A stretch of 64,000 bases of DNA from a virus (IMGVR_UViG_3300021387_001709:96001-160000); one strand, 5' to 3'. Counted from the first letter of the stretch, positions 1 to 22,501 are shown. Notes: a model not told the origin generated them from the letters alone. Made by a program: numbers and translations.

Positions 1-239
1 CTCAACGTATAACAATCCGGGCATGTGTCTGGGAGATTCTACCTTGTATATCCTTTTGATTTTAAATATGAACCCCATACATAATTAGAAGAGGGCATAT
101 CAGATAACTTATAAGCCTCAGCCATAAGTTCGATAAAAATATCATTCCATCCTTTTCCTTCAATTCGCGAGATAGCTCTAATAACACAATCACCAACCAT
201 TTTTCCGGCTGGATTAGGATTAAAATAAATATACCCCAT
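1..239 (-). CDS. conserved phage protein, runs off window; TAG at 39-41 read through
   Basis: RBS GAGGTGA before ATG 239; frame continues past TAG as ...GYTR(Q)NLPDTCPDCYTL. Confidence 0.7.
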
Positions 240-259
240 TAAATCACCTCGATTAATAA

Positions 260-697
260 TCAATTATCTATAGTAGTTACCGTTATTTCCGTGCGCGGAT
301 TTTCTTTGTCATATCCCATACGTAGCGTGAGAGAAGCAAGGTGTTTATAATCATCGTCCACAATAAATCCTGCTTCGGTAAGTCCATCTAATATGAACTT
401 TGGTACCGTGTTGTCGCAATCCGATCTCCGGCGAGTCGGCATATACGTTATCACATCCACAGTGAATTTATCCAACATTAAACCGGAATAACCTAATTTC
501 TTACACATCCATATAGTGAAAAATTTCCATTTCTGTTTTATATTATTCATTTGTACCCGTGGTAATATCATCCAGATGTTAAGAAGCGGATGACGCGGTT
601 TGTCTATTGCCGGTTTTCTAGCACGAGGATATTTTTTGAAATAATATTTGTTATATTCATCAACCAACTATTGGTCTATTATTATTTTGTATTCCAT
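260..697 (-). CDS. rusA: RusA-like Holliday junction resolvase (1 in-frame TAG)
   Basis: RRRSDCDN..PKFILDGL...FIVDDD motifs; ATG 697 gives MEYKIIIDQ(TAG)LVDEY. Confidence 0.75.
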
Positions 698-724
698 TTA
701 TAATTATCACCTATCTATTCATTC

Positions 725-937
725 TTATTCACCGGCAGCAGCAAGCATTATCTTTGCAATATCTCTTACGCATCCTTTATTATCAAGATCTCTGATTATT
801 GCCATCGCAAGATTTGCTTCCCAGTAATAAATAAAATGATCCTCTTCTGGACTAATATCATCTAAATGTGCAAGTCGATCGGTGATATCTATGAATTTCT
901 CAACAAACTCTTTGATATTTTTATAACTTTTCATCAT
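725..937 (-). CDS. hypothetical protein
   Basis: ORF with GAGGTG RBS. Confidence 0.6.
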   Translation of the reverse strand: MMKSYKNIKEFVEKFIDITDRLAHLDDISPEEDHFIYYWEANLAMAIIRDLDNKGCVRDIAKIMLAAAGE

Positions 938-943
938 AACACC

Positions 944-1975
944 TCACATATCCGATAAAGAACTCTGTTTGACGTCTTTAATTCCGTTCTCGTCAAAATA
1001 CTGAGAGAGCGTATCCTCAATAGTTGCGTCATTATATAAATTAACCATATCTGCACTTTCCCAGCCGATTATTTCTTGCACAACAGAAGACGGTAAATTT
1101 TTCTTTAATAACGTAGTGCAATACATATGCCGGAGGCTGTGCCAGTAGAAGGGTTTTCCTAAAAATCTGCTATACGTGTCCACCCAATTGTCGAGGCTTT
1201 CCGGCTTAATCGGTTCGTCTGGATTATTTGCGGATGGAAATAGCCACTCACTAACAATTCCATTTTCTTTTCTATAATCAAGCCATAATTTTAAATAAGG
1301 ATCGAATTCCTTTTTCAACACATATAATTCCAACATCTTACCGCGAGAACCACGACCTTTAGTTTTAACCTTTTCAGGCGTTTTATACAATGAGCCGAGA
1401 AATACATTTTCCTCGTCAAAATATGACACTTTAAACCTTGGCAACTCAGCTTTCCGTCTTCCGGAATACATTGCTAGCGCAAGGATACAAGCTTGCATAT
1501 ATTTCTCTTGTTCAACAAGATGGGAGAGTAATAGTTGTATTTCTTCCGGTTCAAATACTGTTTTTTCACGAACTGCCTCTTTGACTGGAGATTCGATTTT
1601 TCTAATAATTGCTCGATAACCTTCGAATTCTTCTTCCTCATCAAGAATGTTTTCTATGAAATTACTCATTGAAGAAATGACAGATTTTACCCGGCGAATT
1701 CTGTTGGAACTCCATCCCCAGTTGTTAAGACAATGATTCTGAAACTTTGCAAATTCTCGTTTTGTTATTTTGATAAATGGTTTATTGTTGTTATATTCTA
1801 AATTCCACACCCAAAATATTTTTAAATCACTTTTATACTGTTCAATAGTATTAGGTGATCTATCTATAGATTGAAGATATTCTATAAAGTCGTCACCTAG
1901 CTGCTTATTCTCCGGAAGAATCTGTTCGATTAATTCCGGCGTTGTTATATTGTTATACACTGTTTTACGTCCTAT
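944..1975 (-). CDS. tyrosine recombinase (SPbeta YomM-like position), probable ATA start
   Basis: SGRRKAE (R), HSLRH (HxxR), IIGW, terminal LY; RBS AGGGAGTGA then ATA GGA CGT AAA at 1975. Confidence 0.85.
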   Translation of the reverse strand: MGRKTVYNNITTPELIEQILPENKQLGDDFIEYLQSIDRSPNTIEQYKSDLKIFWVWNLEYNNNKPFIKITKREFAKFQNHCLNNWGWSSNRIRRVKSVISSMSNFIENILDEEEEFEGYRAIIRKIESPVKEAVREKTVFEPEEIQLLLSHLVEQEKYMQACILALAMYSGRRKAELPRFKVSYFDEENVFLGSLYKTPEKVKTKGRGSRGKMLELYVLKKEFDPYLKLWLDYRKENGIVSEWLFPSANNPDEPIKPESLDNWVDTYSRFLGKPFYWHSLRHMYCTTLLKKNLPSSVVQEIIGWESADMVNLYNDATIEDTLSQYFDENGIKDVKQSSLSDM

Positions 1976-2000
1976 AACAGATCACTCCCTTCTTTAAAAT

Positions 2001-2255
2001 TTAGCTTTCATCAACCAAGTAATATTCTATGGTTAATGGTATAACCACAAACTCAGTATTTGTTTGAAAGTCTTCCATATAGTTTCTAAGAACAGTAATT
2101 GCAATATCTCGATCATATGTTTTAGTAGCCAGTTCAATATTAGTTACAATTTCCCACTTATGGTCGTGCAATGAACGTAGATATACAGTTTTACCCTCTG
2201 CGTCAATAGAGGCTATTACATATTTATTTATAGTTTTTTCCAATTGTTTTCTCAT
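2001..2255 (-). CDS. hypothetical protein
   Basis: ORF in operon with RBS. Confidence 0.6.
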   Translation of the reverse strand: MRKQLEKTINKYVIASIDAEGKTVYLRSLHDHKWEIVTNIELATKTYDRDIAITVLRNYMEDFQTNTEFVVIPLTIEYYLVDES

Positions 2256-2260
2256 AATAT

Positions 2261-3394
2261 TTATTTCCTTTTAACTCCTTTAGCATTTATTAGTTTTAAA
2301 TTATCAATAACATAGTCAATGTCTGATTGTGTTGTTTCGTAATCTAGTGAAAATCGAATAGAAGCGTTCGCATCATCATCAGATAAACCAATCGCTTTCA
2401 GCACATATGACGGCTCATTAGAGTCAGAATTACATGCAGACCCGGTAGAAACATAAATTCCGCTCATGTCTAGCATTCTTAATATTTGCTCTCCGCGACA
2501 TCCTTTAAAACATACGTTCAAATTTCCAGGTAGCCGATTGCCAATATCACCATTGATGGTTACGTTATCAAATTCACTTATTAATTTTGAGTAAAGATAA
2601 TTGCGTAAATAAAGGATATGTGCGATATCTCTACTATTCTCTAAATTGTTTATAGCGTCAGAAATGCAACCAAATCCAGCAATCGCCAATACATTTTCTG
2701 TTCCTGAACGCTTTCCAGACTCTTGACCACCACCATAAATAAGCGGCGGTATATCTATTCCGTTCCGCACATATAAAAACCCAATCCCCTTAGGACCATG
2801 AGTTTTATGAGCACTTACACTCATCATATCAATATGTAGTTTGTTTACATCAATGGGAATATGACCGTATGCTTGAACAGCATCAGTGTGAAAGATTATA
2901 TTATTTTTACGAGCAATTCTGCCAATTTCTTCAATAGGCTGAATTGTCCCAATTTCATTATTGGCGGTCATTATAGATATTAGCTTTGTATTAGGAGTTA
3001 CGGCATTGGCTACATCTTGCGGATTAATAGCCCCGAACTTATCAACTCCTACATATGTTACTTTAACACCTTTTTTCTCAAGTGCCCAGCACTTATTTAA
3101 AATAGCATGATGCTCTATTACGCTAGTTATTAAATGATCTCCTGGCTCTAATATATTTAATACCCAATTATCACTCTCGGTCCCACCGGATGTAAAATAT
3201 ATTTCTTCCGGCATACAATTAATCGTTGTAGCTAGGTCAGTTCGCGAAACATCAATTAAATTCCTCGCCACAATCCCAGCCCTATGAGTAGAAGATGGAT
3301 TCCCATAAACTTTGGAATACGCATTAAGCATCTGTTCAATCACTCCAGGATATGGTTTTGTTGTAGCTGCATTATCTAAATATACTTCTCGCAT
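2261..3394 (-). CDS. iscS: cysteine desulfurase (IscS/NifS family)
   Basis: YLDNAATT, FTSGGTESDN, HTDAVQA, SAHK (PLP Lys), STGSACNS (catalytic Cys); RBS before ATG 3394. Confidence 0.92.
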   Translation of the reverse strand: MREVYLDNAATTKPYPGVIEQMLNAYSKVYGNPSSTHRAGIVARNLIDVSRTDLATTINCMPEEIYFTSGGTESDNWVLNILEPGDHLITSVIEHHAILNKCWALEKKGVKVTYVGVDKFGAINPQDVANAVTPNTKLISIMTANNEIGTIQPIEEIGRIARKNNIIFHTDAVQAYGHIPIDVNKLHIDMMSVSAHKTHGPKGIGFLYVRNGIDIPPLIYGGGQESGKRSGTENVLAIAGFGCISDAINNLENSRDIAHILYLRNYLYSKLISEFDNVTINGDIGNRLPGNLNVCFKGCRGEQILRMLDMSGIYVSTGSACNSDSNEPSYVLKAIGLSDDDANASIRFSLDYETTQSDIDYVIDNLKLINAKGVKRK

Positions 3395-3404
3395 AATATT
3401 CTCC

Positions 3405-3641
3405 TTACGTAAGTTCATGTTTACACCAAAGGTCAAAATACTTTTTACTTTGTTCTCGATTGAAAATAAAACATAATATTGGATCCCCCGTGTTAAAATC
3501 TACGCTAATATATAAATCAAGAAGTTCACATCCGTGTTTTAAATATAAAGTAGCTTGCTTCACATTGACTATTCGAACACCGTCCTATGGATAATAATCT
3601 TTTCCCGTTATTTCTGAATGTATATCATTAATATCTCTCAT
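3405..3641 (-). CDS. hypothetical protein, 78 aa (1 in-frame TAG; absent from ORF track)
   Basis: ATG 3641 with RBS, MRDINDIHSEITGKDYYP(TAG)DGVRIVN...WCKHELT-TAA. Confidence 0.7.
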
Positions 3642-3674
3642 TCCTTTTAATTCCTTCCTTGAAAAAATCGTAAA

Positions 3675-3715
3675 AAAAGGGGACAGCCACAAAATGAATG
3701 TGTAGTCGTCCCCTA
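3675..3715 (-). terminator. intrinsic terminator-like hairpin
   Basis: AGGGGAC...GTCCCCT followed by T-run on minus strand. Confidence 0.55.
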
Positions 3716-3770
3716 ATATGTGATCCGGTCATGCCGGTTCACTCCGTATTTTATAATCACATTCACTAAT

Positions 3771-4250
3771 TTATTTTGCCGCAAATTTTGGCTTAATCTT
3801 TTTATTCTGATAATTCTTATTTCTATTATCATTCAGAGGTTTATCTTCATTGACAATTGTATTGTCTTCTGAGGTTTTCTCCGGTTCTTCATGCTTTACT
3901 TCCTCAGCAGCCAGTTTAACTTCCGGCGATTCGTTCTTTAATGCCGACATAATTGCTTTAGCATTAGTAGTATCAATCTGCTGAAGCTGATTAATTGCAT
4001 CTTTTATCCAATCCGGAAGTTTTTCAATATACTCTTTATCAAGCGTAAGTTCACTAAGTCTAGCCGCTTCAACCTCTGGTTCAAGCCAATGATTTAAAAA
4101 GCCCGCAGTAATGTTGTATATTTCCTTGCATCTCTCAGAACAATAAGCGTCCATCCAGCGAGGAAGCTTATCAAAATCTGAACAATTAGGGCAGAACTGA
4201 TACTTGCTTGAGCAAATACTGCAGCTTCGTTCAAATTTCTTTTTAGCCAT
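3771..4250 (-). CDS. hypothetical tail-region protein with N-terminal Cys cluster
   Basis: CxxC/CxxC/CxxxC N-terminus, RBS GGAGG. Confidence 0.7.
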   Translation of the reverse strand: MAKKKFERSCSICSSKYQFCPNCSDFDKLPRWMDAYCSERCKEIYNITAGFLNHWLEPEVEAARLSELTLDKEYIEKLPDWIKDAINQLQQIDTTNAKAIMSALKNESPEVKLAAEEVKHEEPEKTSEDNTIVNEDKPLNDNRNKNYQNKKIKPKFAAK

Positions 4251-4264
4251 TATTCTTTTCCTCC

Positions 4265-5539
4265 TTAAAAATTAATAATAGGTTTTTCGATATCTGTATC
4301 TATAGTATTTAATTTCATAACGTCAATATAACTATATATGTCAAACGGTTTATCAATACCGTGTTTCTTTCTTATCTCATTTATATACTCCTGAAGTTGC
4401 TCTGGGGTATTGTTTTTTGCTCCATACTTATGATGAAACGAACCATATATAAACATATTATGATATTTTTTATCCAATATAATGGTGTTCCACTCTTCAA
4501 ACATATATTCTGGATATGTTGACATGGGATATATATGATGTAATTCCAGATTATCTGTAACTGTATTGGTAATATAACAAACGGATCCATATTTTTTAAT
4601 AATTGAATCTCTCCAATGTTTATACGGTTTACTACTTCTAATCCTTTGATTTAGTGTTTTTTCTCCGCCTTTCCAGTTGGGATTATTTTCTCCGGTATAA
4701 TGCCAGCCACCGCCACAGGTTTTGGCGTCACCTTTTCGTAAAACACTACCTCTGATACTTACATCGTTTCCACATGAACAATGACAAAACCAATACGGTA
4801 CTCCGTCAACGGATTTATCAAAAGCCGTTACGGTTAATTCCCCATATTGTTTTCCTACTAAGTCAATAAGACCAATCCCTAATCTGGCACACTCAGGACA
4901 TTCAAAATGTTTAATTTTAGACTGAGCAATTTCTCTTAAGTAATCATCATGTTTCCCATTATTGCATTTCCAATACACTTTTTTATTTGAATTACAATAA
5001 TAATCATATGGAGTCATTTCATTTTTATTTGACCAATAAAGAATGCTGTCTGGGTATATGACTCCTAAAGATTTTTCTTTTTTTACAGCGGCATCGTTCG
5101 GAATCCATTTACCTTTTGGCCTAAAAAATCTTTCTGGAACAATTGTTTTTACTCCACCATTATCCAAATCATTTATTTTAATATCAATCTTAGACCTAAA
5201 GCTAATATCCCATGGGGTGAAACCATTGTCTTCGTTCCAAATTTTTTCTAAATAATCAATGCCATATTTATCTATAACATGTTGGGCAAAACTAGAACAT
5301 GCTCTACATGCCAGTTCTTGATGTTCTCCATTTAACCTCCCAAGTGGATATATTTTATGTGATTCACTTTCATGAATACCCCTTGGACATTTTAACCAAA
5401 CATCTTTTTCAGAACCCATTGATAATTCGCCTGGACTAAAAGCATTCTTTTCATAATCCCACCTATTTAATAAATCGAATCTAGAATGATCGTTACACCA
5501 TTTATCAAAATAATATTTTTCTTTCTTTCCCATTTTCAT
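4265..5539 (-). CDS. free-standing HNH-type homing endonuclease with zinc-ribbon repeats
   Basis: Repeated WxCxxGxH...CxxC units, NPNWKGG, C-terminal LELHHIYP...N...H...FH; AT-rich insertion in tail module. Confidence 0.7.
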   Translation of the reverse strand: MKMGKKEKYYFDKWCNDHSRFDLLNRWDYEKNAFSPGELSMGSEKDVWLKCPRGIHESESHKIYPLGRLNGEHQELACRACSSFAQHVIDKYGIDYLEKIWNEDNGFTPWDISFRSKIDIKINDLDNGGVKTIVPERFFRPKGKWIPNDAAVKKEKSLGVIYPDSILYWSNKNEMTPYDYYCNSNKKVYWKCNNGKHDDYLREIAQSKIKHFECPECARLGIGLIDLVGKQYGELTVTAFDKSVDGVPYWFCHCSCGNDVSIRGSVLRKGDAKTCGGGWHYTGENNPNWKGGEKTLNQRIRSSKPYKHWRDSIIKKYGSVCYITNTVTDNLELHHIYPMSTYPEYMFEEWNTIILDKKYHNMFIYGSFHHKYGAKNNTPEQLQEYINEIRKKHGIDKPFDIYSYIDVMKLNTIDTDIEKPIINF

Positions 5540-5696: not shown

Positions 5697-6509
5697 TTAT
5701 TCGTCTTCCTCGTCATCTTCAACAACATAGATGCTATAGAGTCTCTTATCAGCGTCGCAATAAGAAACCTGAAGCTGTCCATTAAAGTCGATAGTCTGAT
5801 TGTCGGAACTCAGTGACACTTCGCTTTCCGGCGATACCTAGAAGGACGGAATGTCGATATATGCTGCGCGGAGTGTGTCTGCGGAACAAGGATCGACACA
5901 AAGAACCTTAAGGATAAGACGGATAGTCCCCGGGAACTTATCAGCTTTATTAATCATCTCAACAGCACCAGCCGTTGCAGCGGTGCCATCAAGTTCACGG
6001 TCATAACGAATCAGATACTGAGTATAATCGTTGCTAAGCGGAAGAGTAAGTACACCGGTTCCATCATCATAAGTAAATGTGGAAGCAGTAGCACTACCGC
6101 CGGTCTGGAATGCAATACCGAGAGTACCGTTGTTTTCCATACCATACACCTTCGGCGTACCGGTTACATACTTAAGTGTAACGGTCGGGCCATCAGATGC
6201 CTTAGCAATTGTGATTCCCGGTGCGGTAATCTTATGGTTTGCACTAGCTTCAACCTTTCCAGAACCAGCTTCAGATCCGAGAATATTAAGGTTAATAAAA
6301 GCGTTAGTTGCTGTAAACTCACCGGTTTTTGCTCTCCAGAAACGTTTCACGAGGTTGCCGTCTTTATCGGTAACATCATTAGATTCTGCGGAAATATTAA
6401 GAGTAGCTTCCTAAAGCTGGGTGAGTGTATAGAGAACGTTGCCGTCAAAGTCTTCAGCAGTTGCGACCTAGATACGGTCAATAATAAGATCATCGAGCTT
6501 GAATGCCAT
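5697..6509 (-). CDS. major tail tube protein, 270 aa (3 in-frame TAG)
   Basis: RBS GAAAGGAG, MAFKLDDLIIDRI(TAG)VATAE...; TAG at 6468, 6411, 5838; TAA at 5697; position after neck genes. Confidence 0.8.
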
Positions 6510-6580
6510 AATACATTTCTCCTTTCATAATATATTTTATCATTTTATTGTATTAACCGATTATTTCGGGTTATACCAAA

Positions 6581-7375
6581 TTATTTATTGTCACTATTTA
6601 AATCTCTCATAAAATTAAATGATTCCTTCGGAACTTTAGACATATCAGCAAATCCGCTCATACTGCCGGCTAACAATGCCCGTGTATTTTCATAGATTTG
6701 CAAACGTTGCACAGAATCCATAAACACAACATAGTTAATATCCTTAAGCTGCTCAAGGTTGTACTTAAACCCTGGGTGATTAATGCATGCAGAAACTAAC
6801 GGCAACAACGCGGAAGTAGGAGCATCCCCATCTTTTTTTTGACGAGCCAAATTCTGCTCATCTTCCCAAATGATTGCCTCCTTTGTCGCTTTACCTTTGG
6901 CCTTTTCAACCTTTGGATGAATGTTGAAAGCAGTGCGATAATACTCTGAAATTGTAGTATAATCCTCTTCACTAATTTCTATATCATCCGCGGCATCATA
7001 AAGCGTTACTACCTATGAATCAACCAGATTGCCATCTTCATCCGCTTGCTAAACATTTTTGGCATATAAGTCGAATTTCTCCCAGTCTATGTCACCAAAC
7101 AATAATTTTGTAACCTCAGGAGTTTGACCCTTATATAGCATAAGGAACAGCTAGTAATCTGTTATTTTATTCCAATCAACCCCGGCTTTCCAGAGTTGGA
7201 GTCGGTATGTTGTAGGATTACTAACCCATATGTTTAATGAGCCGTAAAACGTAATGTCAGCATCCGGCAAATAGAGAATATCTCCAATTGTTGGGATATG
7301 CAGTGTCATGCCATTACCGACTTCATACGGTAGTCCAAAGTACATCTTTAGAGGATTGAATTTAAACTCGCCCAT
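6581..7375 (-). CDS. tail/neck-region virion protein, 264 aa (3 in-frame TAG)
   Basis: ORF fragments 7151-7384 and 6581-6850 share one frame broken only by TAG. Confidence 0.75.
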
Positions 7376-7376
7376 A

Positions 7377-7943
7377 TTAACCACCTATTTTATTTACCAC
7401 GCGCGAAACATTATCTTTGGTTTTAACAATATCTTTGCCCATAACCATTTCGAATGTTATAGTGCGAGTAGCATAGTCATTATCCGTGACAGACGGTAAA
7501 TCTGATAGCACATGACATTGTGTTCCAAATTTATTTGTCCAATTAAATAAATGTTTTATTCTGGCAGCAATTAAATCGTGGCGAGCAATACCGGTAAGTT
7601 TTTCAGTACCGTTCTTTTCTTCACAAAGTATATAGAAAATAATATCTACATACATAAGGCTGTCATTATATCTAGGCGTTTCTTTAAATTGCACCTCATA
7701 ACAAATAAAATTCTAAACATTGTGCTGAGTAGGATGAATCATATAGTACGGAAGTATATTAACATCTAAATAATCGCTTGGGTCTGCATTCTCATCCTCA
7801 AGTTCCTTGTTGTTTAATAAATAAATAATCAAAGGATCATCTATGAGAGTTTTTTTAATAATTTCTTTAAAACGTATATTGTTATCATCCATTGTAGATT
7901 TATAGGCACGAAGTTCCTGAAGTTGTTCAGTTGTTAATTCCAT
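7377..7943 (-). CDS. putative tail completion/terminator protein, 188 aa (1 in-frame TAG)
   Basis: Fragments 7713-7943 and 7377-7694 joined by TAG 7713: HNV(Q)NFICYEV. Confidence 0.75.
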
Positions 7944-7956
7944 AACTCATACCTCC

Positions 7957-9407
7957 TTACAACGCAATGATTTCAATTGGCAGCGAAGCGATTATATCTT
8001 CGCCATCAACTTTATAGGTTACAGTAAGTATTTTGCCGATATACGAATCGTCTCCCAAGAACTTAACCTTAACATGATTATCTGTTGCAGATAACGTCAG
8101 CAATTCTTGCGGAACGGAATTCCCATCTATAGAAAAATCCCAAGTACCTGGAAGTGCATCTACCGGCATACCGTCTTTGTCGGCAAATACCACAGTGAAT
8201 GTTTTAGCAGAGCCGCCTATACGAATCTGCTGTTTACCGGAGCATGTAATTGTAGCGGTGGTAGTGGGAGAAGGAGTAATATCATCTACAGGAATTGCCG
8301 GAGTCGGCTCTACTTCACTAGCTTTCCAATCCGCCCACCAAGCAATTACATTACCATCAACATCATAATCAGCCTTAAGTGTATGTTGATTAGCAAGATC
8401 TTGCGCACAAGTAAAAATCGCAATTCCTTTGGAATTACTGCGATTGACCTTACTAATCTAAAAAACTCTAGGCTCAGTTAGCACATTGGCATCTATCACT
8501 AAAAACGTATTGTAATATAGGTGTTCCGTGTCTCGATTTAATGGAAGACAAAACTGAGTCTAGTCTTCTACTTGCGTCACCTTGTAGTCAGTCCACAATC
8601 CGCTCATTATGTTATCATAAGGCTTTTTATCCTTATTTCTTACCGTCGCCGGTAAGATCAGCATATGTTTTCTCCATATCATTAATCGACTTAGGAGTCG
8701 GACACTCGTGGGAATATTATATTTATTCAATTCCTATGCGTTACAATACTTCGCGACCTTTCGCTATTCGCGAAGTTATCTCGGCGTTGTCTACAGGAGA
8801 GTTTCACCGATTTTGCCCGATTTTCACTTATAAGTTTCCTTATAAGGCAACAATTTTTATTGTACGAATTCTGGCTTCTGCTAACCCCCGGGAACTCATA
8901 ATATTTCCCATCTTTAATCCAGCGGAACACTTCATCGCAACGAAGCACCTCCCAAGTCGGAAACATATTTTCATCCCGGTCGGCTGTAGCAACCACTAAC
9001 CATCTGCGGTATATGTCATCTTCTCCCTTTAGCCAAACATAAAGACCAACTGGATATCTGGCTCTATACCGCTTACCAAACACTTCTTCGTAATAATCAA
9101 CCTCGCACTCATGACCAGGTCTAAACTGAATATGCATAGTTACCTCGTCTTTCTAAAATGTTTTTTTCGAGTGTGCAATAAATTTCACATCTATAGGTGT
9201 TGGATTTGTATCCTCTTCCGGATTAAATCCTTCAAGACGAAGTCTATTCTACGGCGCAGTATGGTAGTAATCGAAGAAATATCCTACCTAATACTAAACA
9301 TCCTATGTAAACGTAGCATCCATGATTACATCACTTTGCTACTTCCTCGCCCTCCCCGGTACACTAATATTATTGTGCATTGCCTGAAAATCTCTGTAGG
9401 TAATCAT
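7957..9407 (-). CDS. neck/head-closure-region virion protein, 398 aa; exons 8859-9407 and 7957-8604; 8 in-frame TAG
   Basis: Spliced junction RSQNSYN|SGLWTDY; RBS AAGGTGA before ATG 9407; TAA at 7957. Confidence 0.75.
8605..8858 (-). mobile_element. group I intron, ORF-less, 254 nt
   Basis: 5' exon ends U (CAAU pairs IGS GUUG), terminal G, P7 GCAUA/UAUGC, frame restored. Confidence 0.85.
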
Positions 9408-9408
9408 A

Positions 9409-9741
9409 TCAATCACCTTCCTTTATTTTCATAATCTCCGCACCGGCATCTAGGATAAGCTTCCGGTAATTTTTAAAATCAAAACTTTCACTTAGGTACT
9501 CGGATTTCGCCGACTCAAGAATGCTCATTGTAAGCACAAGTTCCGGCGGTTCGCGCAAAATACCATTTAAACCATTTAATTTATATTGTAAGCTATGGAA
9601 TGCCTCCACAACATCAATATTGGGATATTCTTCCTTAGTATTCGGATCCACATAAAGCAACAGGAAGAAAATTGCCTTACGCAAAGAAATTTTAGTAGAA
9701 TGAATCTGAGCAGAAGAGTAGTCGCCATACCGAGTTTTCAT
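9409..9741 (-). CDS. head-tail region protein
   Basis: ATGA overlap with upstream gene. Confidence 0.7.
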   Translation of the reverse strand: MKTRYGDYSSAQIHSTKISLRKAIFFLLLYVDPNTKEEYPNIDVVEAFHSLQYKLNGLNGILREPPELVLTMSILESAKSEYLSESFDFKNYRKLILDAGAEIMKIKEGD

Positions 9742-10202
9742 ACAGTATCAACCCCATTGATAACGGATAAACTATATCCATAATCTCGGATAAGTTTGCG
9801 AAGATCAGTTTGAGCTTTGGTGTACATAGCATGAAGCTCGTTCATTTGAGTTGACTATGCATAGAACTTCTATTCGCTGTTCGATATTAATTGTGATGTC
9901 AACAGCGTAGAATGGTATTTGGGATCTAGCCACCGTTCAACCATCCCCAAAGCCAATACTTCCTCCACAAAATCCTTATCGGAATCCTCGTCCAGAGAAT
10001 TCCGCAATTCGTATTCTATCTCTTCTATATCTTCATCCAGCGTTACCGACTAAAAAAGCCTACGCACCATTGGTTTGGATAGCGTAGACTTCAAGTAGCC
10101 GAGTAACATTTGCTTTACTAATTTTTCTTCTAATCCCGATGTCTCGTAATCTTTTACACGCAGGTAAAAGCGAGAATATATTTCATCAAATTCAGAGGTC
10201 AT
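9738..10202 (-). CDS. putative head-tail adaptor, 154 aa (3 in-frame TAG; absent from ORF track)
   Basis: RBS GGAGG, MTSEFDEIYSRFY...SE(TAG)KFYA(TAG)STQ; TGA overlaps next ATG. Confidence 0.78.
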
Positions 10203-10217
10203 GGGATACCTCCTTTA

Positions 10218-10895
10218 TTAGATAAACTCTTTAATTCCGGTGCCCAGAATATTATCAATAATGACGAGTTTCTGCAAAGACGGATAGTTTTCATTACGAA
10301 TCATATCCATTGCGGTATATTCAATAACAGATTTAAACGTATCCGAAGATTCGTTTAACATCTTTTCAAACTCCTCGTCTGATTTTTCGAAAAACTCTTC
10401 TGGGTAATCTACACCTAAATATTTCTGATAAACATTTCCAATATCATGTTTCCACTGGTCACAAATATCCGGGTCTTCAATCATAATCATAGCATCCATA
10501 ATTACCGGTTTTCTACGCCATGACTGAAGATCTCTATAAGCAACATATTCGATGTCTCCAAAATGAGGCCATTTATATGTCGTCATCTTATCAAGACCTA
10601 CGGTTTCAAGATACCATGGGACAATACTTCTACATGGGATCAAGTCATCAGGTGCAAATTTCTTTACAACTTTGGGAGGTACTGTTTTTCGCTGCTTTGT
10701 AGAAGCAGTAGTTTTCGCAACAGTAGCAGTAGGAGTCTTTGAAACAGGTTTCGCAAAATTATCCCTAGCGTCTTTAATCATAGCTTCGTCAACAGACTGC
10801 ATATGACTAGAAATTTTATAACCTTTGCTTTTTAAGAAATCAATTAACTCCTTATTCTTCACTCCCAGCTCTTTAGATAATTCATTTACAATCAT
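10218..10895 (-). CDS. post-capsid protein with IF2 N-terminal-like domain
   Basis: MIVNELSKELGVKNKELIDFLKSKGYKISSHMQSV resembles IF2_N. Confidence 0.7.
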   Translation of the reverse strand: MIVNELSKELGVKNKELIDFLKSKGYKISSHMQSVDEAMIKDARDNFAKPVSKTPTATVAKTTASTKQRKTVPPKVVKKFAPDDLIPCRSIVPWYLETVGLDKMTTYKWPHFGDIEYVAYRDLQSWRRKPVIMDAMIMIEDPDICDQWKHDIGNVYQKYLGVDYPEEFFEKSDEEFEKMLNESSDTFKSVIEYTAMDMIRNENYPSLQKLVIIDNILGTGIKEFI

Positions 10896-10927: not shown

Positions 10928-13201
10928 TCAAGCGTTATCAATAATCACACCAAACAGCTCATCAATAACAACGCCGATTCCCTCGTAGTACCAGATCTCA
11001 GCTTCAATTGTACGATCCTGAAGAGAGCCGTCCATTCCACGTTCGAAGTATTCTACGTCGCCCTCATTAACTCTCTTAATCGGTTTGAAAGAGTCATCAA
11101 TCGGAACGATGAAAATCTTCTTATTATCATTAGCGGTAAAGATAGAGGTACGAGTGCCTTCCTCATTTACTCTGTCAAGAACAAGACAATCATAGCCTTC
11201 CCACATTCCAAGCATACCTTTTTCATGGAGTTCCTGTTTCATATCATTACTCCACATTTTGTAATTCACGGTATTCTGAAGTTTCTGCATTGCAACACGA
11301 GTACCTACAAGCATAACATCCTTACCGGTTGTAGCTTTAACTGCCTCAATTTTATCAATGATAGAATCTTTAGTAGCCTCAGTAATTGCAATACTAGCTT
11401 TCATATCAGCCGGAAGATAAGAGTCAAGGCTCATGAATGCAGTATAAAGCGCAGAATAACGATGTTTTTCGATGCTTCTATACATAAGGTCTACCATTTC
11501 GGAGAAATCAACCTTGCCAAGCATAAACATCTCAAAATCAGTATAAACTTTAATTACATACGGATAAGTATCAATCGAGAATCCTTTTCCCGGAAGGACT
11601 TTCTGACGTACACTTTTTTGTTTAACATATATTATTTTTCCAAATTTTTATCATCAAATATAAAATGCCAATGGTATCCTCCGCAGGTATGACGTTCACC
11701 ACGGCAAGCTTTTAGAATTCCTCCGCTTTCCAGTTGTAATTCCTTTGAAGCAGTAGAGGCATTTATATATTCCATATTTAACTCTTCACAGAATACTTTA
11801 GTATAATTTTTATTATAAGGTTCGTAATGTTTCTCTTTTTTCGCATCACTTATTTTCTTTTTTGTCTCCTCTGTATGATGCTTTCCATACATAACATTAT
11901 TCTCACCAAGTATTCTTTCTTTATTTAAAGGATTTTCCCAATAGCGTCTTGTAGTCTCACTCCTTCGTTGTCTCAAATCCCCATTTTCATATGAGCGTTT
12001 AACGGACTCACTCATTTTATTTTTTATTTCATCCGTATAATATGAGGAGCAATTCTACCCACCTGTTTTTTTATTATATCCATACTTTCTGTTTAATGCG
12101 TTATAATATTCAATATAATATATTTCTTTTTCATCAAGTTCATTTGCATCACATTCCTCTATAATATAAAAAATGAAATTATTTTCTCCATATTTATTCC
12201 AAGAATTCTGCAAATGACTATTCCCATGATAGTTTGACTTCAATGCATTTTTATGTTTTCTCCATCTGTCATATATATCATGTGCCTATCCGACATATTT
12301 TTTATGATTAACTATATTTTCTATACAATATATCCCAGATATTATATCTTTCTTCATTATTACCTACCTTTTTTATATTTGGAAAAATAATTTTATTGGG
12401 GTCGCTACTCCCAGTTCGGTTTAAAACCGCTCAAGCTTTCACTTGAGAACAGACTATATCTTTTTCGTTAAATAACGAACACACCATTTCCATTTAAGGG
12501 GTTTTCACCCACCCGCTTGGGCCGTACTCCTATTGTCACATTATATGACCATGGGATAGTCGTTGAACATTCTCTTATTTAGAGCTTTGCTGCTGATTGC
12601 CCATTACCAAAACAACAGGGGATTTAACCTCGTTGTCATACAATTAATTTTTTCTACTTTCGTAACCATCACATTTGTACTTATTCATTACTCTGTTGTG
12701 GTTTAATTGTCTTTGGGGTTTCCCAGCAATTAGATGTGTATTTTAACATACAGCTTACGCTATACGGACACTGTTTTAGCCAATGTCATGATGATTGCCA
12801 GCCCATTTGCTAACCTGAAGAAGAGCAGTATTATTAGCTGTGAAATAATTCATATCACCGCGAGCAATATTAACATCCTCTACATAGTTCATAAAACGAG
12901 CATTCGTAGAATCCCAGCCGGAAACCATCTTGTCAGCAAGGACATTTTCGATTACAGAACAGATCTCAATGCCATGTGCTCTCCAAGCCTGTCTACGCTC
13001 CATACGTTTGGCATTCTTAAAGTCAATACCAAGAATCTTATTAAACTAGTTACGAATAATCTCAGAAGTCTGAGCCTTAGAATATTTTTCATAAACACCA
13101 TTTGTGGCGTCCATCATAAGATCGTTGAACTGAAGCATATTCTCATAGTTATTATCAAATTTTGCAACAACATTATTGCTAAAGCATGTAATATCTTTCA
13201 T
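10928..13201 (-). CDS. major capsid protein, 367 aa; exons 12783-13201 and 10928-11612; 1 in-frame TAG (13046)
   Basis: RBS GAGGTG, ATG 13201; spliced junction GNHHDI|VRQKVLPG; size and position after scaffold and decoration genes. Confidence 0.82.
11613..12782 (-). mobile_element. group I intron, 1170 nt, carrying a GIY-YIG ORF
   Basis: P1 GACAU/GUGUC with U.G, P10 ACA/UGU, R UUCAACGACUA, S AAGAUAUAGUCU, terminal G 11613. Confidence 0.9.
11632..12357 (-). CDS. intron-encoded GIY-YIG homing endonuclease, 241 aa (2 in-frame TAG)
   Basis: SGIYCIEN...KKYVG(TAG)AHDIYDRW..H; NUMOD3-like GKHHTEETKKKIS; C-terminal TCGGYHW. Confidence 0.88.
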
Positions 13202-13835: not shown

Positions 13836-13919
13836 AGTTTTTATTTCTCCTTTCTTTATAATAAATTTCAAAATGATAAGAGATTTTACTCTCCATTATT
13901 AACTAACTTTTTAATAGAA

Positions 13920-15629: not shown

Positions 15630-15676
15630 ACTTCCTCCCTTCTTTTTAGAATTTCTCTCCAAAGAATAGGAGAGTA

Positions 15677-15859: not shown

Positions 15860-15863
15860 AATA

Positions 15864-16088
15864 TCACCTACAAACATCATTAATTATGTCAGCGGTTTTT
15901 GTAAGTTCTTCGCGAGCCTTTTCACTAAACCCTGTGTCAGCAACTAATGCCTATGCAAGATACAGACAAAAATTTAGAAGAAATTCATCCTCAACATCAG
16001 TAGTAGATTCATCACTATTAAATACCTTATCTGATATTTGGTTATATTTTTCTATACACTCAGTTGTGTTTGGGTAAAAATTTTTCAT
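15864..16088 (-). CDS. hypothetical protein, 74 aa (1 in-frame TAG)
   Basis: RBS AAGGA, ATG 16088, TGA 15864. Confidence 0.55.
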
Positions 16089-16095
16089 TTTCCTT

Positions 16096-16818: not shown

Positions 16819-16857
16819 AATTTTACCTCCTAGTGTAATATAACCTAGCTATCATAA

Positions 16858-16925
16858 ACACAGAATAGGAGAGAGCTAGGACATCTCTCCATATAAGGTT
16901 TGCAACTCCTTATATTATTCTGTGT
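16858..16925 (-). promoter_or_regulatory. three-way-junction RNA element upstream of GIY-YIG gene
   Basis: Outer stem ACACAGAATA/TATTCTGTGT, TTGCAA-loop hairpin, hairpin with anti-SD loop TCCTAGC. Confidence 0.6.
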
Positions 16926-16928
16926 GAG

Positions 16929-17000
16929 CAAGGGCGCCAGGTGCCGTCCCCGGTCCTCGCGGGTTAGAGCCGCGCGCACTAGCTGGTATGCTACGCCCCT
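16929..17000 (-). tRNA. amber suppressor tRNA (anticodon CUA), presumed Gln
   Basis: Acceptor AGGGGCG/CGCCCTT+G73, D stem GCAT/GTGC, anticodon arm CGCGG-CTCTAAC-CCGCG, T arm CCGGG-GACGGCA-CCTGG; CCA not encoded. Confidence 0.88.
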
Positions 17001-17047
17001 ATAAAACATTAACGCATTACCGCGCTAAATTCATTAAATAAAATAAT

Positions 17048-17072
17048 AGAGCGGGAGCTTAATCCCGCTCTT
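17048..17072 (-). terminator. terminator-like hairpin
   Basis: AGAGCGGGA/TCCCGCTCT stem followed by T-rich tail. Confidence 0.45.
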
Positions 17073-17081
17073 AATTACCAA

Positions 17082-17489
17082 TTATAAATATTTGTCATAA
17101 AATTCATCATTAACTAAATCAACAACTTTATCAAGAATATCAAGGTTTTTAATAGCATCATTTAATTCTTTATAAAGATATCTATTCGGAACAGGATTAT
17201 GTGCTACATCTCCATAAACACGAAAATCATGTTCTGCACAATCTACAAAAGATTTACACTCAGTTTCATCTATATTATAAAATACTACGCCAACTGTCTC
17301 TTCATATTTCCCAGTAGAATCATTATATTTGCAAATCAAATAATTATCATCCGGATAATCTGTAGACTTAAACCATGATATTATTTCATCACCCGGTTCA
17401 TTATCGCAACTATAAATAACATCATAATCAACGCGATAAACCGCACCACATATACTCAATATATTATTTAGTTTTAGAATTTTATACAT
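17082..17489 (-). CDS. hypothetical protein
   Basis: RBS AAGGAG, no TAG. Confidence 0.65.
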   Translation of the reverse strand: MYKILKLNNILSICGAVYRVDYDVIYSCDNEPGDEIISWFKSTDYPDDNYLICKYNDSTGKYEETVGVVFYNIDETECKSFVDCAEHDFRVYGDVAHNPVPNRYLYKELNDAIKNLDILDKVVDLVNDEFYDKYL

Positions 17490-17517
17490 TTGTTTCTCCT
17501 TTTAAATCCTATAGTTT

Positions 17518-19098
17518 TTATGCTATTTCAGAACCAGTATTTCTACTTCTTTCAGCACTACCGCTTAAATCATCGTCATCTGATCTAGGTCTTCCGACAG
17601 TATTACTGGAAGTATTATAACTTGATTGTAGTGGCTTCATCATATCCTTAATACCAATAGCATTCTCAAACCTAATCTTGTTGATTGCTTTATACGGTGT
17701 TCCTTCAACAACAGATAAATAATCCAATGCCGGGCCGCCAAGTGTCGCGGAGTCTTTATATCTCTGAATATAATCATCCTCGTTAAACCAGGTTATTCTC
17801 AGTATTTCAAAGATATATCCCTTTGATATATTTTCTGCAATATAAAAATTCAGCCAAGATTCTAACCTATTTACCCAGACCCACACATTTGATTGATCCG
17901 CAAGCTGAGCAAATTTAATAGCCAGATTAGAAGTAGAATTACCGCCGGACACAACTGTTTGTGTTAATCCGCTGTTAGAAAACAGATTATTTATAGATTT
18001 CGCTAACGCATCTGTATCCGACGCATGTGACGTGTCATTAAACGTGATTTTATCGATATCAAATGGAGCAGTAATAACACCGACCAAATCCGGCACTGAC
18101 TGTTCCTCAAGCTGTCGAAAATAATTAACCATCTCCATTGAGATAGCAAAATCATCAACATCCCCGCTATTACCATTGTCCACTAACGGTATCTTATTCA
18201 CAATCAAAGCATAATTCTCAAGTTCTGTTTTAGATTGAAGAATCTGCTACAAATCAAGCAAATCTAATAAATCCGTAAACAGCGGAAGAAAATATGGCAA
18301 TGGGAAAGAGAACTCATCTTCCGGACCAATTAACAAAACACAACATTTTTCGGGAGGTAATCTAAACCATTGATAATCTCGTCCGCCATCCTTATATGAA
18401 CGATATCCGTTAATAAATACTTCATCCCATGTTGCATAACTTCCTTGTCCGTCAACTCCAAGGACAAACTCACTATTGTTGGCTGCATCAAAAAATGCCG
18501 CATTAAAATACACAACCCACTCGCCATACTCATTTTTTCCTACAATCCTACAATACTGAACATCTAACGGCATTAAAAATGTTCTTCCCTATTTATTCTC
18601 GTAAACATACCCAGCATAAAATCCGTCACGGATTGCAAGATATAATGCGGTATACATATCTTTTTTTAGGCTGAATTTATCAAAAGTCTCGAGTACTTTT
18701 TGATAACCTTTAAGTGCTTTATCAACATCTATATCTTCAGACAAATCATTTGCTTGAGTAATTGTATAATAGAACAACGGCATCGCCGCCATATACATAA
18801 TCATTTTTTGATATAACATTGAGTTCCTGACTAAAAATCTCGAAATTTCTCGAAGAGTATCTTGATTGTTAGCCGGAGACTAAACATATGTTTTTACGAG
18901 ATCTTTAGTGTATTGCGTGAAAGTTCTGTTTACAGACCTAGTGGCGTTACGCTGAAGAATTTCTTCCATTTTTGCGAATGTCATTGTCTGCGCACGTTCA
19001 CGCTTATATGAAAAATCCTCCACATCCGTGGGAATTGTAGTTATTTTAGTTTCATTATTTTTGGGGCCGCGGTCAGCGGTTTTCTTTCTTGTTGCCAT
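17518..19098 (-). CDS. portal protein, 526 aa (3 in-frame TAG)
   Basis: Four ORF fragments in one frame joined by TAG at 18880, 18589, 18247; PLQSSYNT...VGRP tail; follows terminase. Confidence 0.82.
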
Positions 19099-19113
19099 GC
19101 GGCACCTCCTTCA

Positions 19114-21171
19114 TTATTTAAATCTGGTTACTTTTTTGGGTTGACGGAATGTAAATTGAGAAAATAGCTATTGTGGATCTTGATTTTTAGGCTTTTTCAA
19201 AATATCACTTCTACGTTCTTGAAGTAAAGCCCATCCAAGCAAAGCGCAAGTATATGCGCGATCATCGTGCATTTTATTTGCCTTTTCCGGTGTTAATTCA
19301 AAAGAATCTTTGCCTGTATCTCTCTTCTTCCTCACCATATTTACCAATTCTTCTTTTAATATATCTATATTAACAAGACCAATTTCATCTCGCCAATCCA
19401 ACTTAATAGTTTTCGTTTTTACCGATTGTAGTTTATTAAGTTCCTCTTTTAACTTTTCTTCAAACTCTTTCCCTACAATCTTTTGTTTCTTTAATTTTTC
19501 AGTTATCTTTTTTGTCTCTTCATCAATCATTTTCTAATCAACATCAAAAACAGTAAGATATCCTTTATGATCGTAATTAGCGGTAAAACTAATTTTATTC
19601 TAATTTAACATTTCTATAAGTGCTTCGTACATCTACGATTTATAAGCACTTGGATTCATCATATGGAGTTTTCCCTAAACCGCGTCCGGAAATCTTTTAA
19701 CGTACTCCTCAGAATATTCCTTATCTATAAAACCTCTGTGTTCAACCCCGGCTTTATCGACCCAGTTTTGCATTAACATATCCGCAATAATTGGACCACC
19801 CCCACCAGAACCGGCATCTATATAAATTCCAAGAATATTATCATAATTATCAGCACCACCATTATAATCAAGAATCATTTGTCTTAAATATTCAACTTGA
19901 TCCGGTGTTTGCATAGGTGATTTTATTTTTTTACCTACGTCTAACAGATTAACTAAATTAACAATTCTCGCTTTATATTCCTTCGACCCATCAGGAAGTG
20001 GAGATTCGTAACGCTCAGCAACTAAAACTACAGAATTATCTCTCATCCTAGCTGGATCATAACAAATCCAAAATTTCCTATTACCGATATCATTACTATG
20101 AACTGGTTTTCTCGTTTCTTCGTTACGAGTAATGACTCCGCGCTTTACAATAGCATCAGCTCCAGCCTCTGTGGTAAATTGACAATAATATTCTCGTCTA
20201 GCCTTTTCGGGATTTGTTCTCATTTCATAATCAACTGTTGAGCGAGATAGAAGAGGAGCAACAAGTTCTCCTCTAATTGTAGGTTTAAATGCCAACTCAC
20301 AATCCATATGAAGAACAACATACTCCGGATTACCCATTATCATATTTTTCGCGAATTCTCTATATAACCTATAGAATGCAGTATCCGTACTACTTGCGGA
20401 ACTAATATATATTTTTTGATATCCAATTCCTTGTGGAAAACATCTCTATCTAATTGGGTCTATAGATTTACCACTAGCGTCCTTACCAGTTTTAAGATTT
20501 TTATTTACAGCAGCAAACGCTCCATAAACGTTCATCAATTCATCAGATAAAAATCCACTTTCATCAAACACAATCGTGCCTCTGTAGCCACGGTGTGCAT
20601 CTATATTAGCATTTAACGTTTGGGAAAAAGAACCATTATACAAAGTATATTTAAAGCCGTCGGAAGAATGGCTAAAACCATCTCCAGACGCATTGCTAAT
20701 GACAATCTCATCCTTAAATATCTTTCCAGTAGAACCTGTAAAGGTATCAATATTATCATTTGCTAATTTTTCAAGAGTAGTGAAAGTATTCTGTGCCTAA
20801 CTACCGGACCCACTAGCAATATATGCCCAATAATTATTGAATAACATCCCCTTAGACATTAACTCCAGATCAATTACTGTCGATTTACCAAAACCTCGCG
20901 TACAAACAAGGAGAGAATTTGGAGTAAACCATGTTCTCTATACGGCGAGCGACTACATATCTAATAACTCAATATTGAAAAAATTATCAATAAATCTAAC
21001 AGGATTACATTGATAATACTTCTGCATTTCTGCAATTGCTAACAAAGACTCAATTTTTCTACTAGACATAGGATAATCAATTGGCTTGACAAATACACCG
21101 TAATCTTTATAAAAGTCCTTGTCATAATCCAAATAGCCAAAATCATAAACTGGAGAAATCAGCGTCTTCAT
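19114..21171 (-). CDS. terminase large subunit, 685 aa (9 in-frame TAG)
   Basis: LLDM(Q), Walker A CTRGFGKST, Walker B IVFDESG, YISSAS, nuclease YDPARMRDNS / IDAGSGGGG / HDDRAY. Confidence 0.9.
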
Positions 21172-22501
21172 TTTCGTCGTCCTCCTCGTTTTCATCATTG
21201 GCAAAAACAGAATATAGATCTCTTAAATTCCTATATTGATTACTAATATCAATTCCTTTTTCTTCTAAATAATCTTTAAGATCAAGATTCTCCTAGAGAA
21301 GTATTCTATTAATCTCTTTATATGAATTACATTCTTCACGAAGTTCTTGGATGGTTTTTCTCATAGTCGCAACCATATCTGACCATTCTGACTCATCAAG
21401 AGCCAATTGCTTCATAAGAGAGGCATCGGCGATTTCTTGTACTTGCTACATACCTCGACAAGTTCCAATATCAAAACCGTTTACTTGCCCATCTCTTAAA
21501 TTTAATTCCTATATCTTTTTAAGTTTTCCGGTCCAAGTGTTTTCGCCTCTGATAGAATGTTTACTGTTCTTTAAAGAAATGCAGCTCTCTTTGGCAAGAT
21601 TATTCACGCTACTCAAAATTTGCGCTTTCATCTATTGAAGGGCTTTGATAGTGGCTATATTCTTTTCAGCATTCCTAAAATCTTGCGATAACTGAGCAAC
21701 CATGTCATCAATATTTGAAGCCTATAAAAAACCACGAACGATGGATATAATAGAAGCAGTTCTCATCATATCATCGTTGCCTTCTTCAGATGAATCTAAA
21801 AAACCTATTAACTACGAATATAAAAACGGCTAGTCGGATAGCTTTTCTTTATCAAAAGGAAGATACCCCAATAACCGCAAAGTGTCATTTTTATTTTTTT
21901 CAAATTGTTCAATAATTTCCTAGTCCTTTGGTAAAGCATTTTCCGCCATATCTTCAAGAGACATTGCGCCACCGGTATAATTGTCAGACTCTCTATAAGT
22001 CATTGTATAATAATTAACCATCTGGATATTTTTGCAATATGAAGTATAAACATTACTTTTGCCTTTCCCAGATGCTCCGTTAGCAGCTTCGAGAAGAGAT
22101 GCTTCCCATACAGTTTCCAACATTGGTTTGTTTAAAAAATACATAGCGTCGTCAACCGTTTGTTTGGTTGGTTGCTATTTTTCTCCATTAACAACTGGCA
22201 GTGCAATTTCTTCCGCACATTGCTTACATCCGTCCGTTAATCCAGATGCTTGTCCGGGAGCAGTAGAAACATAGAATTTATCTTTTGTTTTAACGTGACC
22301 ACAATGCTGACACGTAAAGAATTTACTCCCAACGCCAATCGCTTCGAGTGCTTTTATCTAATCACTAGGTTTAAGCGTATCAAACAATTCGCATAACTAA
22401 TCAATCGTCTTATCTATTTCTTTTAGGTTTGTAGTTTTACCGGCTTCCTTCGGTGAAACCGGCTTTTTCTAACCTTTTTTCACTATTCTGGTTGCAGACA
22501 A
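21143..22501 (-). CDS. pre-terminase zinc-finger protein (possible small terminase), 452 aa (12 in-frame TAG)
   Basis: RBS AGGAGG plus TTG 22501; CQHC...CKQC; continuous frame to TGA 21143 only if TAG is sense. Confidence 0.75.

Follow-up and report, generated by a model that had tools for sequence, protein, structure and literature searches.

A late operon written in genetic code 15 in a phage of SPbeta-like architecture, with a candidate amber suppressor tRNA encoded inside it

We analyzed a 64,000-nt window of viral DNA (IMGVR_UViG_3300021387_001709, bases 96001-160000 of a single 189,811-bp contig; positions are those of the window unless stated otherwise) and found that the late operon of this phage is written in genetic code 15, in which TAG encodes glutamine (Gln). 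The phage is SPbeta-like, with a probable host among the Lachnospiraceae or related Clostridia of the gut. We give a probability of about 0.85 to the explanation that we consider best as a whole, which combines the code-15 operon with a proposed route of decoding: UAG would be decoded by a phage tRNA with the anticodon CUA, hereafter tRNA(CUA), encoded within the operon itself at 16928-17000; the host glutaminyl-tRNA synthetase (GlnRS) would charge this tRNA with Gln, and full-length late proteins would be made only once it accumulates.

Results

TAG interrupts the late genes and no others

Under translation table 11, the minus-strand genes between 5697 and 22501 appear as a run of short open reading frames (ORFs) that resemble pseudogenes. 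Translation with TAG as Gln joins them into long contiguous ORFs that stop at TAA or TGA. The late arm of the window contains 54 in-frame TAGs in 6,742 codons, 53 of them in 5697-22501, and TAG makes up about 25% of all Gln codons there. No late-arm gene of the window required read-through of TAA or TGA, or a frameshift. The original prediction, made from the sequence of the window, had proposed that the late genes are broken by TAG alone and rejoin under code 15, and our gene calls agree with this. It had also assigned a proper ribosome-binding site (RBS) to the rejoined frames, which we could recognize at 14 of 26 starts only. TAG density peaks in the first late gene, a YonG-like gene with 12 TAGs in 452 codons, the earliest at codon 11.

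We compared coding density under codes 11 and 15 by greedy ORF tiling of the whole contig, a check that the prediction had proposed. Code 11 gives values of 0.35-0.8 between 44 and 118.5 kb of the genome, where code 15 gives about 0.9-1.0; outside this interval the two codes give equal values, so that density is restored only here. The recoded block is a single co-oriented arm of about 75 kb that runs from the YonG-like gene (window position 22501) to an endolysin gene at 44.2 kb of the genome, and the window contains its promoter-proximal 22.5 kb. The whole block holds about 300 TAGs. Two giant ORFs of 3,516 and 2,795 aa account for 67 and 70 of these, and the terminal endolysin, with NlpC/P60, ELLD and PG_binding domains, for 5.

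Immediately upstream on the same strand, 16 genes at 23008-36561 contain no TAG in 4,010 codons, where the late-arm rate predicts 32 (Poisson P about 1e-14), and every one of them stops at TAA or TGA, as had been predicted. The boundary between the two codes lies between 23008 and 22501 and is thus less than 600 nt wide. The claim of a sharp boundary at a tRNA cluster therefore stands as to sharpness but not as to the cluster: by ARAGORN and Rfam, a single canonical tRNA, tRNA-Pro(UGG), is found in this interval, along with a small ORF and a remnant resembling the 3′ half of a tRNA. In relatives, as many as ten tRNAs are arrayed here. The remnant (22637-22700, minus strand) adjoins tRNA-Pro and has a T-arm with the motif GGTTCGATTCC and no matching 5′ acceptor strand.

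The proposed extent and membership of the recoded region also required adjustment. Recoding had been assigned to all of 1-22501; it holds for 5697-22501 and not for a TAG-free island at 260-5539, whose core (944-5539) has no TAG in 1,396 codons, where 14 would be expected (P about 8e-7). Terminase, portal and other virion genes and the two GIY-YIG genes are recoded as listed, but the ClpP-like head protease lies outside the block (25463-26077) and has no TAG. Because the early and middle genes and the integrase-containing island avoid in-frame TAG, they read the same under either code. Recoding is thus confined to the packaging, virion and lysis operon. Outside the late arm, some code-15 ORFs with TAG can be drawn (e.g., 40068-40661, 52483-52932 and 57594-58055); these have no PHROG match and are probably spurious extensions, and we rejected them.

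TAG sites resemble glutamine sites in standard-code relatives

For comparison, we fetched 91 related loci, which split cleanly into 8 recoded loci (L001-L003 and L007-L011), with 7-47 in-frame TAGs each, and 83 standard-code loci, with 0-1 each. Some of the standard-code loci are prophages of Coprococcus catus and Eubacterium ruminantium.

At the 52 TAG sites that could be aligned with the 83 standard-code relatives, the site-weighted residues are Gln 35.5%, Glu 14%, Lys 9.5% and Asp 9%. This tally fits that of the phage's own CAA and CAG sites in the same relatives (Gln 33.7%, Lys 12%, Glu 12%), against a background of 3.6% Gln. At 18 of the 52 sites most relatives carry Gln, and at ten sites Gln reaches 93% or more among 15-83 relatives. 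Three of these ten are the motif positions that the original prediction had cited as examples, namely Q84 (LLDM-Q) and Q136 (SGS-Q-A) of the terminase and Q24 (YVG-Q) of GIY-YIG; all are invariant Gln in homologs, the last in 15 of 15 homologs of the intron-borne endonuclease. Terminase Q253 is likewise invariant, and at Q535 only one of the 83 relatives departs from Gln. In the YonG-like gene, four TAG sites are at least 95% Gln in 79-82 homologs and one more is 93% Gln in 15. Three recoded relatives (L007, L009 and L010) show the same residue profile at their own TAG sites. A lack of Gln preference in homologs, which the prediction had named as evidence against itself, was not what we found, and neither frameshifts nor other stops accompany the TAGs. 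From these alignments, the reading of TAG as Gln is well supported.

We considered whether TAG might specify another amino acid (Trp, Tyr, Ser or pyrrolysine), with the Gln signal reflecting only the mutational origin of TAG from CAG. The body of tRNA(CUA) resembles tRNA-Trp and tRNA-Tyr, its counterparts in relatives have a long, type-II-like extra arm, and CAG differs from TAG by one transition. However, Trp, Tyr or Ser should be counter-selected at the ten most conserved sites, which include the terminase and GIY-YIG motif positions, and across the 52 sites and 83 relatives we found no excess of Trp, Tyr, Ser or Leu at TAG sites over CAA and CAG sites. The codons of relatives aligned to TAG sites are more often CAA (634) than CAG (375), and CAG-to-TAG mutation alone is therefore no explanation. 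The discriminator base of tRNA(CUA) is moreover G73. By established rules of tRNA identity, both tyrosyl- and leucyl-tRNA synthetases need A73, and we rejected a Tyr or Leu identity for this tRNA on that basis. Altogether, we regard an amino acid other than Gln as very improbable.

The same relatives bear on whether the TAGs are simply damage, in a decaying prophage or through an assembly or sequencing artifact. Apart from the pseudogene-like appearance under table 11, nothing positive points this way. Only one type of stop codon occurs in frame and no frameshifts occur, while about 300 TAGs, including those of the two giant ORFs, fall in one co-oriented block of a genome estimated to be 98% complete. 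Independent assemblies from other samples have TAG at the same positions (34 of 40 aligned sites shared with L003, and 11 with L002), and several related contigs of 130-203 kb carry the same pattern. As shared positions in independent assemblies exclude both decay and assembly artifact, we consider the chance that the TAGs are damage to be negligible.

In a quick terminase tree, the window groups with L003/L008, L007, L009 and L010 in a clade (100% by the SH-like approximate likelihood ratio test, SH-aLRT) that lies inside the standard-code relatives, and terminases of standard-code and recoded relatives are 70-97% identical. This suggests that recoding arose within the lineage and that the recoded genomes form one clade. 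In the standard-code relatives, 25% of ORFs end in TAG, indicating that TAG was not abandoned as a stop codon before its reassignment. We note that about 7% of the non-late ORFs of the phage itself end in TAG; the few early ORFs among them mostly have a back-up TAA or TGA 1-9 codons further on, as at 51196-51201 (plus strand), where TGA follows TAG.

A candidate suppressor tRNA within the recoded operon

Among the relatives, tRNA(CUA) genes occur only in recoded loci, at a syntenic position with homologous flanks or nearby, and score 48-59 bits as Rfam tRNA. Their structure is supported by compensatory changes in 18 of 23 pairs. All family members have a weak 1-72 pair (A-U, G-U or A-C), G10, U35 and G73, and most, including the copy in the window, have G3-C70 (C3-G70 in L007, L001 and L002). 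The 5′ halves are similar to Lachnospiraceae tRNA-Trp, and in L007 the D-arm and anticodon arm match it at 32 of 36 positions. In seven of seven relatives examined, an extra arm presents a loop with CUGA or UUGA, in which A37 comes after a Gln anticodon (CUG or UUG); the copy in the window has no such arm. Loops of this kind occur in L009, L102, L096, L109, L007 and L001, among others. The extra-arm loops of L009 and L102 differ by a single C/T at the first position, both being Gln anticodons.

In L002, a 98%-identical relative, a group I-like intron of 231 nt (Rfam 29.7 bits, E=1e-5) separates anticodon positions 35 and 36 of the syntenic tRNA(CUA) gene (12108-12425 of that locus). The gene has no intact CUA until this intron is spliced out; with the exons ligated after CUCU, the anticodon loop reads CUCUAAA and a cloverleaf is obtained. 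The extra-arm loop of this tRNA is UUCUGAG.

The candidate in the window, detected by ARAGORN under relaxed settings, sits on the late strand after the portal gene and a 135-aa gene, at the syntenic suppressor locus of the relatives. It keeps all four stems and has A1-U72, G3-C70, G10, U33, U35, A37, G73 and an acceptor start of AGGGG. It shares 72 identical nt with L003, against about 8% divergence in the homologous flanks (P about 0.003). Scanning the 189.8-kb genome for CUA stem-loops and for paired T-arms and acceptor stems yielded no second or better suppressor candidate, the one other match being the minihelix at 40070-40115 described below.

Several observations weigh against this tRNA as the decoder. 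It lacks the G18G19 and T-loop TTC motifs of the elbow as well as the extra arm of its relatives, gives no Rfam tRNA match at the gathering threshold or at E<=10 and is missed by ARAGORN at default settings. It lies downstream of a terminator-like hairpin, and no recognizable promoter was found there. In an IMG/VR pattern scan, the window type occurred only in the contig that also yielded L003, L008 and L114, and a scan of a single metagenome returned three chance matches only; as the minimal form is thus found in just this genome and one 98%-identical relative, it has no covariation evidence. Release-factor (PF00472) and GlnRS/GluRS (PF00749) domains were not found in the phage genome. The window copy may be non-functional. 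The ancestry of the tRNA body is ambiguous as well, and tRNA-Tyr, tRNA-Ser and tRNA-Leu were considered as sources besides tRNA-Trp. Lachnospiraceae tRNA-Trp is the best match of the window and L007 copies, but the L009 and L109 copies match phage tRNA-Tyr equally well or better, and the anticodon arms of L009 and L007 match those of phage tRNA-Tyr except for G34C. For this reason, an origin from tRNA-Trp of the kind seen in the E. coli suppressor Su7 is supported only in part, and the tRNA(CUA) body could also descend from tRNA-Tyr. Weighing these features, we put the odds that the sequence at 16928-17000 is a working suppressor slightly above even.

A further possibility is that TAG does mean Gln but that this tRNA is a decayed relic and UAG is decoded by another route, such as a host near-cognate tRNA-Gln(CUG) after interference with release factor 1, the suppressor of a co-resident element, or an undetected tRNA, for example one split by an intron. 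The missing elbow motifs, the missing Gln-decoy arm and the failure in Rfam are what a relic might look like. The intron in L002 demonstrates that hidden forms exist, and Borges et al. (bioRxiv 10.1101/2021.08.26.457843) could detect a suppressor tRNA in no more than about 40% of the phages with TAG recoding. Against a relic are the cloverleaf with its four stems and textbook CUCUAAC loop, the identical copy in a second genome despite diverged flanks, the syntenic position, the failure of the genome scan to return a better candidate, and the lack of a release-factor-related gene in the phage. We regard a relic as unlikely, though not to be dismissed, and continue to favor decoding by the in-operon tRNA(CUA).

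It is possible, though we hold this only tentatively and at somewhat less than even odds, that the switch for the second genetic code of this phage is a tRNA invisible to annotation software, and that one young clade carries at one locus three forms of tRNA(CUA), namely bait-armed, intron-split and minimal, with the minimal form, GC-rich and found in the window, apparently the sole decoder of about 300 essential UAGs. The suggestion that the Gln anticodon in the extra arm acts as bait for GlnRS belongs to this proposal and is equally tentative.

Other tRNA-like genes were noted in these genomes. A standard-code relative has a suppressor without recoding, a tRNA-Trp with CTA in place of CCA (L047, 8412-8487) that differs by that single base from the tRNA-Trp of L019, L024 and L025. 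The tRNA cluster of the phage, outside the window, includes two aberrant tRNA-like genes (genome 163864-163952 and 165018-165110; L092), one with AAGCTAG in its anticodon region and the other with a 26-nt D-loop insert and a 4-nt anticodon loop, and a partial group I intron match just after tRNA-Leu(UAA).

Model for decoding and regulation

In the favored model, tRNA(CUA) would be charged with Gln by the host GlnRS, as is the Su7 suppressor of E. coli. We infer this charging from the weak 1-72 pair, G3-C70, G10 and G73, which are acceptor features of bacterial tRNA-Trp and tRNA-Gln, together with U35. Two genomes with prophage relatives, of Eubacterium ruminantium and Acetatifactor, have GlnRS genes (TIGR00440 above cut-off), although these bacteria may not be the host of this phage. 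Full-length packaging, virion and lysis proteins would then be made only after tRNA(CUA) accumulates; before this, and in the lysogen, ribosomes would get no further than codon 11 of the YonG-like gene, the first TAG of the operon.

The original prediction described the code as a lock on morphogenesis, following the proposal of Borges et al. (bioRxiv 10.1101/2021.08.26.457843) that recoding holds back late and lysis proteins as long as no suppressor is available. By analogy, such a lock could operate here, and the TAG-free integrase island is compatible with the proposed separation of lysogeny and lysis. The suppressor gene is positioned behind three TAG-bearing genes of the operon, so if it is co-transcribed with them, it would add little timing control beyond that of late transcription itself. 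The recoding could equally serve to insulate the phage, whether as a prophage or against competing elements.

Gene content of the recoded arm and its surroundings

The features of the window are listed in Table 1. A Pfam search of the window proteins gave no family for the terminase, the portal or most virion genes; we therefore utilized PHROGs and the annotations of relatives. Yon and Yom names refer to Pfam families precomputed for orthologs in relatives L004-L007, which align with the window genes. By these families (YonG_N, YonD_N, YonB, YomW, YomU_Tube and YonJ) and by the YonO-like polymerase gene upstream, the SPbeta-like architecture suggested in the original prediction is supported.

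Table 1. Features of the recoded late arm and flanking regions, in window coordinates.
Feature	Position	Strand	Details
TAG-free island in late arm	260..5539	minus	RusA-like resolvase, tyrosine integrase, class-V aminotransferase, 159-aa ORF, HNH/DUF4379 endonuclease (Pfam and PHROG)
Eight further virion genes	5697..10895	minus	Six with 1-6 TAGs each, 18 in total
YonB-like gene, split	10928..13201	minus	Exons about 12776-13201 (1 TAG) and 10928-11530; phrog_4088 positions 143-329 of 332
Group I intron in YonB-like gene	about 11611-12787	minus	Rfam Intron_gpI 67.3 bits, 12430-12787
Intron-borne GIY-YIG endonuclease ORF	11632-12357	minus	2 TAGs; Pfam GIY-YIG and NUMOD3
YonD-like virion protein, 586 aa	13920..15680	minus	2 TAGs; phrog_3313; orthologs Pfam YonD_N
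Free-standing GIY-YIG homing endonuclease, 240 aa	16096..16818	minus	6 TAGs; Pfam PF01541, phrog_7168
Candidate amber suppressor tRNA(CUA), 73 nt	16928..17000	minus	71% GC; relaxed ARAGORN; anticodon loop CUCUAAC
135-aa late gene	17082..17489	minus	No TAG; followed by terminator-like hairpin at 17048-17071
Portal, 526 aa	17518..19098	minus	3 TAGs; phrog_2739, E=8e-86
Terminase large subunit, 696 aa	19114..21204	minus	9 in-frame TAGs; Walker A and B motifs
YonG-like, 452 aa, first recoded late gene	21143..22501	minus	12 TAGs; RBS AAAGGAGG; orthologs Pfam YonG_N
tRNA-Pro(UGG)	22555..22627	minus	ARAGORN and Rfam, 40.8 bits; only canonical tRNA at code boundary
16 TAG-free middle genes	23008..36561	minus	Exonuclease, ClpP-like protease, PIN/PhoH, HU-like, YonO-like RNA polymerase, HNH, ParB-like; upstream of the late arm
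YonO-like RNA polymerase	28394-31278	minus	phrog_8308, E=3e-72; split by group I intron

For the terminase, 2,048 homologs were found, one of which is named terminase large subunit by UniRef, while tblastn against a phage collection matched five Clostridioides phages only. The portal matched portals of large Bacillus and Brevibacillus siphoviruses, the nearest cultured ones being 25-27% identical. Two mobile elements distinguish the window from its close relatives: the free-standing GIY-YIG gene, directly downstream of tRNA(CUA), is an insertion relative to L002 and L003, and the whole intron insertion in the YonB-like gene is not present in either.

Among the middle genes, the polymerase consists of ORFs of 561 and 302 aa that both align to one 928-aa ORF of L007, separated by an intron at about 29303-29592 (minus strand; Rfam Intron_gpI at 29355-29606, 45.4 bits, E=2e-10). 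The only predicted gene in this region that ends in TAG (29379-29633) is a frame internal to that intron. A homolog of the polymerase in Enterocloster phage PMBT24 is annotated as an RNA-dependent RNA polymerase, and the gene may encode a single-chain enzyme of the YonO type.

Two further observations concern the surroundings. In the TAG-free island, the class-V aminotransferase (2261-3436, minus strand; Pfam E=2e-84) is cysteine-desulfurase-like and adjoins the integrase, an unusual cargo for a phage late arm. On the plus strand, a tRNA-like minihelix at 40070-40115, with a 7-bp acceptor stem and a T-arm (loop TTCAATC) and no D-arm or anticodon arm, closes a GC-rich stretch (39800-40070) that has no convincing ORF and may be structured.

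Discussion

Our results place a late operon in which TAG is read as Gln in an SPbeta-like lineage. This lineage offers a clean and recent case of code change, having standard-code and recoded relatives with 70-97% identical terminases. Because about 75 kb of this genome breaks up into pseudogene-like pieces under table 11, annotation pipelines need mixed-code gene calling. The phage type has a dedicated late-gene polymerase, and transcriptional and translational gating should therefore be separable by experiment.

The suppressor locus is the part most worth following. Because it is polymorphic, with bait-armed, intron-split and minimal forms, both the recruitment of GlnRS to UAG and the dispensability of tRNA parts can be tested there. 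If the minimal tRNA works, capture of GlnRS in the manner of Su7 would be enough for a natural code change, and this would help explain the apparent scarcity of suppressors in most TAG-recoded phages.

The kind of recoding described here is already known, and what is new is a member in an SPbeta-like lineage. Late-gene-biased recoding of TAG to Gln has been reported in gut phages of the crAss-like, Lak and "gemstone" clades, such as Agate (Borges et al., bioRxiv 10.1101/2021.08.26.457843), and has been proven by proteomics (PMC9523058). As in those phages, TAG occupies Gln positions in structural and lysis genes, early and replication genes remain compatible with the standard code, close standard-code relatives exist, and a phage suppressor tRNA, here a candidate, would rely on a host aminoacyl-tRNA synthetase. 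Unlike the phages of Borges et al., this one belongs to an SPbeta-like lineage, and its recoded operon is immediately preceded by a YonO-like polymerase gene. It has no release factor 2 gene, TAG stops are frequent (25%) in its standard-code relatives, and its suppressor gene is non-canonical and located inside the recoded operon.

Phassvirus (phAss-1 and relatives) comprises siphovirus-like phages of about 135 kb with predicted Clostridia hosts, in which TAG also encodes Gln (PMC10607447). Both are large siphovirus-like gut phages of Clostridia without an aminoacyl-tRNA synthetase of their own, and in both Gln was inferred from terminase alignments; TAG is found in terminase, portal, tape-measure (>3,100 aa) and fiber genes. 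Whereas phAss-1 has three suppressor tRNAs recognized by tRNAscan-SE, the phage studied here has one candidate, missed by standard tools. We saw no sequence relationship between the two, the terminase search of the phage collection having returned only the Clostridioides phages.

For the suppressor, the closest precedent is Su7 (supU) of E. coli, a tRNA-Trp whose anticodon changed from CCA to CUA and which GlnRS charges with Gln (Yaniv et al. 1974, as cited in PMC2965240 and PMC9976931). An amber tRNA-Ser could likewise be turned into a Gln acceptor by changes at pairs 1-72 and 3-70 (PMC9976931), and the features shared by the tRNA(CUA) family (weak 1-72, G10, U35, G73 and mostly G3-C70) overlap the E. 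coli GlnRS identity set (PMC9976931). The window tRNA resembles Su7 in its CUA anticodon with U35, in A1-U72, G73 and the AGGGG start, and in a 5′ half near Lachnospiraceae tRNA-Trp, while the tRNA-Trp of L047 has exactly the single CCA-to-CTA change. Unlike in Su7, the D-loop and T-loop of the window copy are aberrant, the relatives add a CUGA or UUGA extra arm, and charging by GlnRS is a prediction.

Finally, in SPbeta of Bacillus subtilis the YonO polymerase transcribes the late genes (PMC5467207). The phage described here is, like SPbeta, a large temperate siphovirus of Firmicutes, with the same one-strand order of polymerase, HU-like, YonJ, YonG, terminase, portal, YonD, YonB, YomW and YomU genes. 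It differs in its low protein identity and in having a tyrosine-type recombinase, and, whereas SPbeta uses the standard code throughout, its late operon is recoded.

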